NCBI RefSeq assembly: GCF_044324785.1
Contig: NZ_CP172128.1
DNA length: 64,000 nucleotides
Strand: one strand, 5' to 3'
Source of the DNA: Escherichia coli
GTDB lineage: Bacteria > Pseudomonadota > Gammaproteobacteria > Enterobacterales > Enterobacteriaceae
Shown here: positions 3,501 through 6,500 of the stretch, in pieces
Layout: each line of letters begins with the position of its first letter
Numbering within the stretch: the stretch's first letter is position 1
Made by a program: the position numbers

Positions 3501-6500
3501 TCCGGAGAGTAACGGCATAGCAGAGAGCTTCGTGAAAACGATAAAGCGTGACTACATCAGTATCATGCCTAAACCAGACGGGTTAACGGCAGCAAAGAAC
3601 CTTGCAGAGGCGTTCGAGCATTATAACGAATGGCATCCGCATAGTGCACTGGGTTATCGCTCGCCACGGGAATATCTACGGCAGCAAGCCAGTAATGGGT
3701 TAAGTGATAACAGGTGTCTGGAAATATAGGGGCAAATCCATTATTTTTTTGTATGCTCAGTTATTGATGGATAATAATATTAAATGAATCAGTAAGTTCC
3801 TTACTCTTTCCCTCTGCACAGGTGGTTTTTTATAAAATTCTTCGAAAGGTAATACCTGATATCCCGGAGGCATAGCAACGAAGGGGATACAGATTAAAGA
3901 CATAACACGGATAAGTCACCAGGAGGAATTATGTCTTGGATGAAACTGACGGAAGCAGAACGTAAGCGTATCAACGATGCTTATGCCGCACAGGCTGCAC
4001 AGTTAAAGTTGTCCGGCAGGGATGAACTGCCACGGGAAGTTAAGAGAAAAGTGCGTGTAAAAGTTTTGAGAATGATTCGGGCAGAGCGCAAAGCGAGAAC
4101 CGCAAAGGCTCAACGAACAAAAGCGTATCGTGCCGCAGAGAACACGTTTACCTGGCAGCCGGCGCGACGCAGGTGAGCCGGCCAGCGGAAGAGCCTGTAC
4201 ATAGATTTGTGTAATTGCCTGATTTTGATATGTTCAATCCAGCATCAAATGAAGGTTAATTTATGGACGAAAAACAGTTACAGGCTCTGGCTAACGAACT
4301 GGCCAAAAACCTCAAAACCCCTGAAGACCTCAGTCAGTTTGATCGGCTGCTGAAAAAGCTCAGCGTTGAAGCCGCTCTCAATGCAGAGATGACACACCAT
4401 CTTGGGTATGAGAAAAATCAGTCCAGACCAGGAGCTAACTCCCGCAACGGTTATTACACAAAGACCGTTATCACAGGCGACGGTCCACTGGAACTGCGTA
4501 CTCCGCGCGATCGTGACGGTACCTTCGAACCACAACTGGTAAAGAAAAATCAGACCCGTATTACCGGGATGGATAACCAGATCCTCTCGTTGTATGCCAA
4601 AGGGATGACCACCCGTGAGATAGCCGCTGCGTTCAAAGAACTGTATGACGCAGATATTTCACCGGCACTGATATCAAAGGTTACCGATGCCGTGATGGAG
4701 CAGGTTGTATAATGGCAAAACCGACCACTGGATGCTGTTTACCCCATTGTTTATCTTGACTGTATCGTCCTGAAAGTTCGGCAGGACAGTCGCATCATCA
4801 ACAAATCGGTGTTCCTGGCACTGGGCATCAATATCGAAGGTCAGAAAGAACTGCTGGGTATGTGGCTGGCCGAAAATGAAGGGGCGAAGTTCTGGCTCAA
4901 TGTGCTGACTGAACTGAAAAACCGCGGTCTGAACGATATCCTCATCGCCTGTGTGGATGGCCTGAAAGGCTTCCCGGATGCCATCAACACAGTATATCCG
5001 AAGGCCCGCATCCAGTTATGCATCGTGCATATGGTGCGCAACAGCCTGCGCTTCGTGTCATGGAAGGACTACAAAGCCGTCACTCGCGACCTGAAAGCGA
5101 TTTATCAGGCTCCCACGGAAGAGGCAGGTCAGCAGGCACTGGAAGCGTTCGCTGCGGCCTGGGACAGTCGCTATCCTCAGATAAGCCGAAGCTGGCAGGC
5201 TAACTGGCCGAATCTTGCCACGTTCTTCGCTTATCCAACGGACATCCGCAAAGTGATCTATACGACGAATGCCATCGAGTCGCTAAACAGCGTGATCCGC
5301 CATGCGATCAAAAAGCGTAAAGTGTTCCCGACAGACGACTCGGTGAAAAAAGTGGTGTGGCTGGCAATCCAGTCTGCGTCCCAGAAATGGACGATGCCGT
5401 TGAAGGACTGGCGAATGGCAATGAGCCGCTTTATTATCGAGTTCGGTGACCGCCTGGACGGTCACTTCTGAGAAAGGCATTTACACAGAATCTTAAACAG
5501 GCTCAAGTGAAGCTAAGCACACAATCAATTCAGGTCTTTGACATCCTCCATCTTAACTTCCAAAGGGTACTCCCGCCGACATAAGGCGGGAGTACCCTTT
5601 GGAAGTTAAGATGGAAAACCGACATAAGAACCCTCTGTTATCCTGAAACTCTTATATTTATATAACTTGTGAAGGCGTTATGCACACAACCAATCTTCGC
5701 AAAGTCGGCGTCTCGTTGACATCCTCCACGCCCTGACGAATGTGGAGGAATGTCAATATTAATGTCCGGGCCACTCCTGTTGTTCAGTGACGTGATGTGA
5801 TATTTCTTCTTTAGCTGTAGCCTCATTCTGGAGGTTTGAAGTAAATATACGCTCCATTGTTTGTGCAACCGATGGTGGCATTTTTTCTTCCACACGTTCC
5901 TCTTCCGGACAACTCTGTGTGATATAGCATACGTGCCGTTCTTCCCGGGATGTGGTATTGATGATGTGAACTGCCTTGTTCCACAGGCTGTTTCCCCGGG
6001 CAGAGATATCTGTATCATATTGCGGAAGCAGATCCAGCGATGTTTGTGTTTCGTTAAGCTGCTTCTGGAAGGTATCGATGATACGGTAAGGCTCTGTACG
6101 GTTTTTACGACGTTTACGGGATGGTTTTGCTGTCAGTACACCAATAATGCTGCTGACATGCTCCGGTGTGGGAAAACGGCGCTGCACTGTCCTGGGGACG
6201 AGACGGCGGAGACGCTCCAGGCGGGGGGCTTCAACGGAAATATAGCGGTTGATGACCACCGGATCACTGTCGCAACTTTTCTCGCTGTCCGGAATATACA
6301 CAGAGGCTGACGGCACCACATCCCCCTGGAAAACGGTAAAGAACTCACCGGCATTCAGTCTGATCAAATCCTGCACGTCGATTTTGCTTTCCATCTGGAT
6401 GGTGATCTGGTTACCGTCCACCCAGGACTCACCCATCACACCATCGTGGCGCTGCAGGCTGCCCATTCTGGCCCTAGCCTCTTCACCGGCGGCATTTTTC

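Follow-up and report, generated by a model that had tools for sequence, protein, structure and literature searches.

A small open reading frame (ORF) of 81 amino acids (aa) lies between two insertion sequences (ISs) in a 64,000-nucleotide (nt) stretch of Escherichia coli DNA (contig NZ_CP172128.1 of assembly GCF_044324785.1). We refer to this whole stretch as the window, and positions are counted from its first letter. Overall, we consider it probable (roughly 0.72) that the ORF is a real gene of a narrow family carried by ColE1-type plasmids, that it is a relative of the chromosomal protein YjbD, and that it now sits in a stranded fragment on an IncI1 plasmid; its role, we infer, is accessory.

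Coding status and distribution of the small gene

The ORF and its start signal are the following:

3921-3926, + strand: Shine-Dalgarno sequence AGGAGG, read directly; an AATT spacer (4 nt) separates it from the ATG at 3931
3931-4176, + strand: 81-aa ORF with an ATG start, from the ORF listing; the product is a small basic protein with two predicted helices

An earlier note on this DNA had claimed an ORF with a ribosome-binding site (RBS) at this location, and the ORF listing and direct reading confirm both, with the sequence as quoted. AGGAGG is a strong RBS, and its 4-nt spacer is somewhat below the optimum (about 5-9 nt between the Shine-Dalgarno sequence and the start codon); the description of the spacing as ideal was thus slightly overstated. 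The protein is indeed strongly basic, with 24 lysine and arginine residues against eight aspartate and glutamate residues, a computed net charge of +16, and a computed isoelectric point (pI) of 11.6. It is identical to WP_045148228.1, which is annotated only as a hypothetical protein in a plasmid that matches the region at 100% identity.

The same note regarded the ORF as an orphan and named a lack of homologs together with a lack of expression as the refuting outcome. On the contrary, homologs are plentiful: full-length (~81 aa) copies were found by tblastn in 441 of the 72,556 plasmids in PLSDB, and there is also a distant kinship with DUF3811/YjbD (see below). The carriers are mostly mobilizable Klebsiella plasmids of 5-12 kb (53-55% identity), mainly ColE1-type bacteriocin plasmids, together with a few small plasmids of E. 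coli and E. marmotae (81-88% identity to the ORF). The family is nevertheless narrow: when 1.84 billion proteins are clustered at 50% identity, it accounts for only 36 representatives. A larger collection comprises 61 clusters, every one of them named "hypothetical" and all of them from Enterobacterales except for one record labeled Pseudomonas aeruginosa. Family proteins are about 70-90 aa long, with net charges of +7 to +16 and pI values of 10.2-11.6.

Several features of these homologs argue for coding. Length and reading frame are kept down to 44% identity, and the ratio of nonsynonymous to synonymous substitution rates (dN/dS) is 0.11-0.31 for pairs in which synonymous sites are not saturated. 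Between lineages, synonymous change is saturated, yet frame and length persist, and the protein motifs are recognizable at 23-55% identity. In addition, a purine-rich site is kept at the same distance 5' of the start codon despite unrelated upstream contexts. This pattern of substitution identifies the ORF as a true coding gene, maintained by purifying selection. The alternative would be a chance ORF, or a conserved noncoding element that happens to be open, and some observations could be read that way: no promoter-like site and no domain match accompany the ORF in the window, the gene is pseudogenized in two colicin plasmids, and the 100% identity seen among sibling IncI1 plasmids reflects recent common descent rather than selection. 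The low dN/dS, the frame and motifs kept amid saturated synonymous change, the RBS kept in unrelated contexts, and the profile kinship with YjbD make such an explanation very improbable.

Scans for expression signals gave little. No sigma-70-like promoter was called upstream of the ORF in the window, no terminator was called in the region around it, and the promoter scans of CloDF13 and of the small plasmid L007 returned no convincing promoter for their homologs. An upstream hairpin that looks terminator-like by eye in the plasmid pSMS35_8 appears degraded in the window copy. On the opposite strand beneath the ORF, the ORF listing contains no frame of at least 40 aa. The idea that the ORF simply overlaps a cer site (the Xer recombination site of ColE1-type plasmids) was ruled out, as the Xer cores lie outside the ORF and the substitutions are of the coding type.

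Kinship with YjbD and predicted fold

Scans of the ORF protein and of family members against Pfam, NCBIfam, PHROGs, and PADLOC yielded nothing above noise. The relationship that we favor emerges only when profiles are compared. YjbD (DUF3811, PF11656) is a 90-aa protein of Enterobacteriaceae, encoded on the chromosome of E. coli by b4023 (yjbD). When a profile of 18 family members (A3) was aligned using hhalign to a profile of 16 YjbD sequences (A2), the match had a probability of 89.9% and an E-value of 1.7e-6 and covered 72 columns, almost the whole of both; with one YjbD sequence in place of the profile, the probability reached only 17.7%. The window protein does not match the PF11656 hidden Markov model (HMM) even at E<=10, and the best family member (P0006) reaches 12.7 bits (E 0.18), below the gathering score of 23.5 bits; by comparison, YjbD of E. 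coli reaches 144.7 bits. In UniRef, some family members from Klebsiella and Salmonella do bear the name "DUF3811".

The two groups have in common their size, strong basic charge, and predicted helical content, as well as three stretches of sequence: an N-terminal (K/M)-(L/M)-T-E-x-E, a central basic helix that ends ...ER(E/K)A.AKKA, and a C-terminal E-x-(S/T)-F-(S/T)-W followed by R-(G/R)-R-R at the extreme end. Members P0070, P0073, and P0080, which carry ...TF(T/S/E)WS(G/S/A)SV..RRR, form a bridge between the two, as can be seen by setting their tail (...EEKTFSWSASVGNRRR) against that of YjbD (...EASFSWSANTSTRGRR). Divergent plasmid members likewise have C-terminal ends (...TFSWSASVGNRRR) that are intermediate between ENTFTWQPARRR, the motif in the ORF, and the YjbD motif. 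The differences are substantial: pairwise identity is only about 18% and scores remain below the Pfam threshold, the C-terminal spacer is shorter (QPxRRR in the ORF family versus SANTSTRGRR in YjbD), and the ORF family is plasmid-borne, whereas yjbD is chromosomal, between rluF and lysC. We interpret the ORF family, from these alignments, as a distant plasmid branch of the YjbD/DUF3811 lineage. It is important to note that this link names a relative, not a mechanism. A literature search found no functional study of DUF3811, yjbD, b4023, or mbeE (mentions of YjbD were incidental only), and none on the ColE1 mobilization (mob) genes that bears on the ORF family.

AlphaFold, run with the family alignment, places residues 1-7 in coil, a first helix at residues 8-24, a loop, and a long basic helix at residues 35-71, with a mean predicted local distance difference test score of 82; the C-terminal tail, which carries the conserved motif E-x-T-F-T-W-Q-P-x-R-R-R, is modeled less confidently. 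The predicted fold is thus a helical hairpin with a conserved aromatic and arginine-rich tail. Structural comparison gave no informative match for it, and a sequence-profile search of the PDB returned only low-complexity charged-helix matches (E>=0.3). The earlier note considered the charge consistent with nucleic-acid binding, and the high pI together with the predicted long basic helix would be compatible with such a putative activity, for which no domain or structural match was found.

Two known families of small plasmid proteins invite comparison. The N-terminal KLTxxE suggested a ribbon-helix-helix (RHH) protein, as among the relaxosome accessory proteins MbeC/MobC, NikA, and TraY, which are also small and associated with mob regions. 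The likeness lies in an N-terminal h-K-L-T-x-x-E followed by a helix, comparable with the junction of the strand and helix A, and it appears to be superficial. Neither the monomer nor a tandem-dimer model contains a strand, no RHH, MobC, NikA, CopG, or TraY-type Pfam model is matched, helix 2 is about twice the usual length, and mob operons that carry an ORF homolog already encode a separate MobC/NikA-like protein. The RHH candidate was rejected on these grounds, although the tandem dimer was an improvised, linker-joined construct (predicted template modeling score 0.34, with no strand and no confident bundle) and is weak as a test of dimerization. The other comparison is with Rop/Rom (PF01815), the helical-hairpin RNA-binding protein of ColE1. 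It too is a small hairpin, it occurs on the same plasmids, and one ORF homolog is translationally coupled to rop. However, the ORF family shows neither sequence kinship with Rop nor a match to its Pfam model, its helices are unequal (17 and 37 residues), no confident dimer bundle is predicted, and it differs in its strongly basic character and conserved C-terminal tail.

The ColE1-like fragment and the insertion sequences around the ORF

Because trbA, trbB, trbC, and nikB are annotated and the repZ regulatory pseudoknot (IncI1 replication control) is matched by Rfam at the window end (63839-63988), we assign the window to an IncI1-type plasmid. Nine complete E. coli plasmids, whose recorded sources are mostly chickens, match the 522 bp around the ORF at 100% identity, and there the ORF is located inside an IS mosaic between nikB-pemIK and trbC. 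The region is present in only 13 of 5,426 complete E. coli genomes, and the exact ORF protein is recorded on about 1,000 assembled contigs. Features that surround the ORF are the following:

954-2409, + strand: left part of a ColE1-like fragment (blastn match of 954-2410 to L013 and L014, 75-85% identity), collinear with the right part
2410-3740, + strand: IS2, 1331 bp, with terminal repeats read and orfA and orfB ORFs, inserted in the ColE1-like fragment
3741-4190, + strand: right part of the fragment, comprising ~190 bp upstream, the ORF, and 14 bp after its stop codon
4191-5504, + strand: IS1414 (IS256 family), 1314 bp, with 30-nt terminal inverted repeats at 4191-4220 and 5475-5504

The placement of the ORF between IS2 (on the left) and an IS256-family element (on the right) is therefore as described in the earlier note. 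IS2 is annotated in a 100%-identical plasmid as an IS3-family transposase with a programmed frameshift. The name IS1414 is likewise taken from such a plasmid, where the element is annotated as "IS256-like element IS1414 family transposase, internal stop", and its transposase frame is interrupted, with split ORFs at 4263-4712 and 4809-5471. No 5-bp target duplication flanks IS2 (ctgtg versus ttatt), and none is formed by the flanks of IS1414, which begins 14 bp 3' of the ORF stop codon.

The evidence that the ORF is out of place comes from collinearity. Together, 954-2409 and 3741-4190 align by blastn at 75-87% identity with one continuous stretch of p14408_3 (a colicin R plasmid) and of pSMS35_8 (L014, colicin E1-like), both of which are ColE1-type plasmids; the matched stretch starts just 3' of the mob operon and stops where the ORF ends. 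In the right part, 3741-4176 matches L013 at 77%, two pieces (3745-3866 and 4011-4176) match L014, and 3876-4190 matches L007 at 87% and L002 at 85%. The two flanks of IS2 are only 11 bp apart in pSMS35_8, and IS2 therefore lies inside a captured fragment of ~1.9 kb. The pattern search that matched Xer sites in the small plasmids found none in the window, and Rfam found no RNAI there, as is expected of a displaced fragment; the native downstream neighbor is the cer/Xer site, removed here by the IS1414 boundary. The suggestion that the ORF may be a fragment of a lost neighborhood is thus borne out, and in functional terms the ORF does not count as IS cargo. As far as alignment can tell, the window ORF is an ordinary Col-plasmid relic, displaced from its native setting. 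A near-identical donor plasmid was not found, the closest small-plasmid copies being 85-88% identical.

In our reading, a ~1.9-kb piece of ColE1-like backbone landed in the IncI1 accessory region, on the trbC side. IS2 then split the captured piece, leaving the ORF in its last 450 bp, and IS1414 cut the piece 14 bp past the stop codon, with loss of the cer/Xer site and of all that followed it. The gene is now most likely a passenger on the IncI1 plasmid, without a dedicated role, and its expression, if any, probably comes by read-through from IS2.

Some details of this region deserve mention in their own right. Among sibling IncI1 plasmids, the IS2-type junction 5' of the ORF is at 3741 (L001), 3803 (L011), or 3826 (L010), that is, there are three junctions within 85 bp, in both orientations, with the ORF and the IS1414 junction identical throughout. 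The variable junctions could reflect an insertion hotspot or IS-mediated adjacent deletions. The left part of the fragment (954-2409, ~1.5 kb) contains no annotated gene in any relative examined and only short, unconvincing ORFs; it could include unannotated small genes or RNAs. A STAXI RNA motif (Rfam, 711-868, - strand, 70.4 bits versus a gathering score of 40.5) lies between the end of IS100 and the start of the fragment at 954. On the other side, past the right end of IS1414 and before the 3' end of trbC, there is a perfect 31-nt inverted repeat with a 7-nt loop (5547-5615; TCCATCTTAACTTCCAAAGGGTACTCCCGCC ... GGCGGGAGTACCCTTTGGAAGTTAAGATGGA); the annotation of pTB-nb2 places an IS66 element between IS1414 and trbC. 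Farther along, Rfam matched an AgrB antisense RNA (10539-10628, - strand) and two tandem sok-type antitoxin RNAs (13818-13974 and 14538-14695).

Native contexts and candidate roles

The earlier note proposed looking for the same gene in intact contexts, and these are found in small ColE1-type plasmids such as CloDF13. RNAI is matched by Rfam in L003, L004, L005-L008, L013-L015, and L021, and rop is annotated in homolog-bearing plasmids. The homologs are genes of ColE1-type backbones (RNAI/RNAII, rop, and a cer-type Xer site), and the window copy is located outside such a replicon. The CloDF13 homolog (NC_002119, 3446-3691, WP_021515249.1) lies between the cloacin gene and "protein K" and is known only from automatic annotation as a hypothetical protein. 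This copy and those of the 5.7-12 kb cloacin and klebicin ColRNAI plasmids of Klebsiella are, like the window protein, 81 aa long; they are 53-55% identical to it, share its motifs, and have the same TFTWQPxRRR end. Unlike it, they are less basic (net charge +8 to +9 versus +16), remain in an intact backbone, and are divergent from an SOS-regulated bacteriocin gene. The Xer core pattern was not matched in CloDF13, unlike in the Klebsiella and Salmonella plasmids examined.

In some plasmids, the gene follows a relaxase gene closely. It starts 17 bp (L016-L019) or 34 bp (L029-L031, L022) 3' of the stop codon of a relaxase that is 46-51% identical to MbeA of ColE1, on the same strand and with its own RBS, and the small proteins of these two lineages are only 47-50% identical to each other. 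E. coli colicin plasmids also place the gene 3' of the mob operon on the same strand. These positions raise the question of whether the product is a mobilization protein, encoded by the distal gene of the mbe (ColE1-type MOB) operon and acting in the relaxosome or in transfer; it might, for instance, bind the transferred strand, or the coupling protein might recognize its arginine-rich tail. Substrates of type IV secretion typically have a positively charged C-terminus. L007, which has no annotated mob genes, has an Rfam match to traJ-II (582-664, + strand, 43.6 bits) 126 bp 3' of the ORF homolog, and within this match is CCCTTATTCGC, which we take to be the reverse complement of a stretch of the oriT (origin of transfer) region of RP4; the match may be an oriT for mobilization in trans.

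Several findings weigh against a mobilization role, and we regard it as unlikely. MbeB and MbeD are encoded inside or next to mbeA, and in two lineages the gene does lie next to it, but ColE1, the reference mobilizable plasmid, has no homolog (this was checked; its mbeA stops at 3733 and its cer core lies at 3909). The gene is under purifying selection in plasmids without annotated mob genes (L002, L003, L005, L007, L008), CloDF13-type plasmids use the unrelated MOBC system, and the same tail is found in chromosomal YjbD. The proteins do not match the MobC family, and no family member scanned matched the MbeB_N or MbeD_MobD Pfam HMMs. The gene is dispensable, because it is absent from ColE1, frameshifted in p14408_3, and broken in pSMS35_8, where an IS remnant replaces the 5' half of the homolog (L014 1100-1345). 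It is thus not required for ColE1-type replication, mobilization, or cer function. The replacing sequence in pSMS35_8, presumably the first part of an orfA of the IS3 family, read from the opposite strand, creates a fusion ORF that corresponds to protein P0086.

A second recurrent neighbor is the Xer site. In each of ten small plasmids there is exactly one Xer core, always 3' of the ORF stop codon, at a distance of 3-6 bp in L003, L004, and L006 (Klebsiella and Salmonella), 270 bp in L013 and L014 (colicin R and E1-like), and 541-1335 bp in others; in L020, the core is at +187 bp. This order would fit a role linked to cer, whether the protein binds DNA there as an accessory factor or transcription of the gene runs on into the site. 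We give this little credence. The cer site of ColE1 works with the host proteins ArgR, PepA, and XerCD only, in a plasmid that does not carry the gene. Lineages differ in how the core is oriented with respect to the ORF (it is inverted in the Klebsiella and Salmonella plasmids relative to those of E. coli), no core was matched by the same pattern in L016/L017 or L029-L031, and in L021 and L033 the cores are 1.8-2.4 kb away from the homolog. Importantly, the sampled plasmids are related, so that a common gene order may be mere inheritance. In the three closest cases, the XerD arm starts 3-6 bp after the homolog stop codon (L003 4385-4412, L004 2386-2414, L006 4016-4043), in the inverted orientation, and this arrangement suggests Xer-site-mediated reshuffling at the boundary.

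One further backbone arrangement is seen in L021, a Xenorhabdus bovienii plasmid contig in which the start of the homolog overlaps the stop of rop (ATGA). The pair occupies 2997-3445, and the contig includes two matches each to RNAI and to C4 antisense RNA (1155-1258, 7093-7196, 3887-3971, and 4447-4533).

The gene also lies head-to-head with genes for toxins: cloacin or klebicin in L003, L004, L009, and CloDF13; pesticin in L006; Lipase_3 proteins in L005 and L024; and an EF-hand/pesticin-like operon in L033-L035. The shared intergenic region holds the LexA box of the bacteriocin promoter. The only chromosomal family member seen, a 70-aa homolog on a Pantoea sp. chromosome contig (L032 6001-6213), has as neighbors a Tle1-like lipase of the type VI secretion system, a DUF2931 gene, and a Tn3-family transposase; a mobile toxin module probably brought it there. 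A regulator of the adjacent divergent bacteriocin or toxin operon would account for these pairings, including the proximity to the Tle1-like lipase. However, E. coli ColE1-type plasmids have cer and exc1/exc2 between the ORF and the colicin gene, the copies adjacent to mbeA or coupled to rop are not beside a toxin promoter, and L008 carries the ORF without an annotated bacteriocin gene. The protein also has no recognizable DNA-binding regulator fold, and the insertion of cargo modules at one backbone position explains the pattern equally well. Regulation of the toxin operon is thus an improbable function.

What we favor, tentatively and at well under even odds, is that the protein uses its long basic helix and arginine-rich tail to bind nucleic acid and serves the small plasmid's own DNA or RNA transactions as a dispensable accessory or architectural factor, in transfer, multimer resolution, or replication control. 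Such a role would make it a copy, carried by plasmids, of the host factor YjbD. A more specific version, which we think quite unlikely, is that the gene represents an unrecognized accessory module, with a YjbD-derived protein that binds DNA or single-stranded DNA and acts at the junction of the mob operon and cer. Such a protein might accompany or shield the transferred strand and itself enter the recipient by means of its conserved aromatic and arginine-rich C-terminal tail; alternatively, it might tune Xer recombination at cer.

For the window itself, the finding carries little weight: the ORF records how an IncI1 plasmid of poultry E. coli acquired, and then fragmented, a piece of a Col plasmid. 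The family is of wider interest, as a conserved small protein under purifying selection has been overlooked in classic, heavily studied plasmids (CloDF13) and is also found in the very common 5.7-12 kb Col plasmids of Klebsiella. The repeated siting of the gene after a relaxase gene, after rop, or against an Xer core marks a position in the backbone at which cargo such as bacteriocins and lipases is exchanged. YjbD is a core enterobacterial protein, and a cheap plasmid phenotype could open up both families. If true, a role in escorting the transferred strand or in tuning Xer recombination would give the first functional handle on YjbD/DUF3811.

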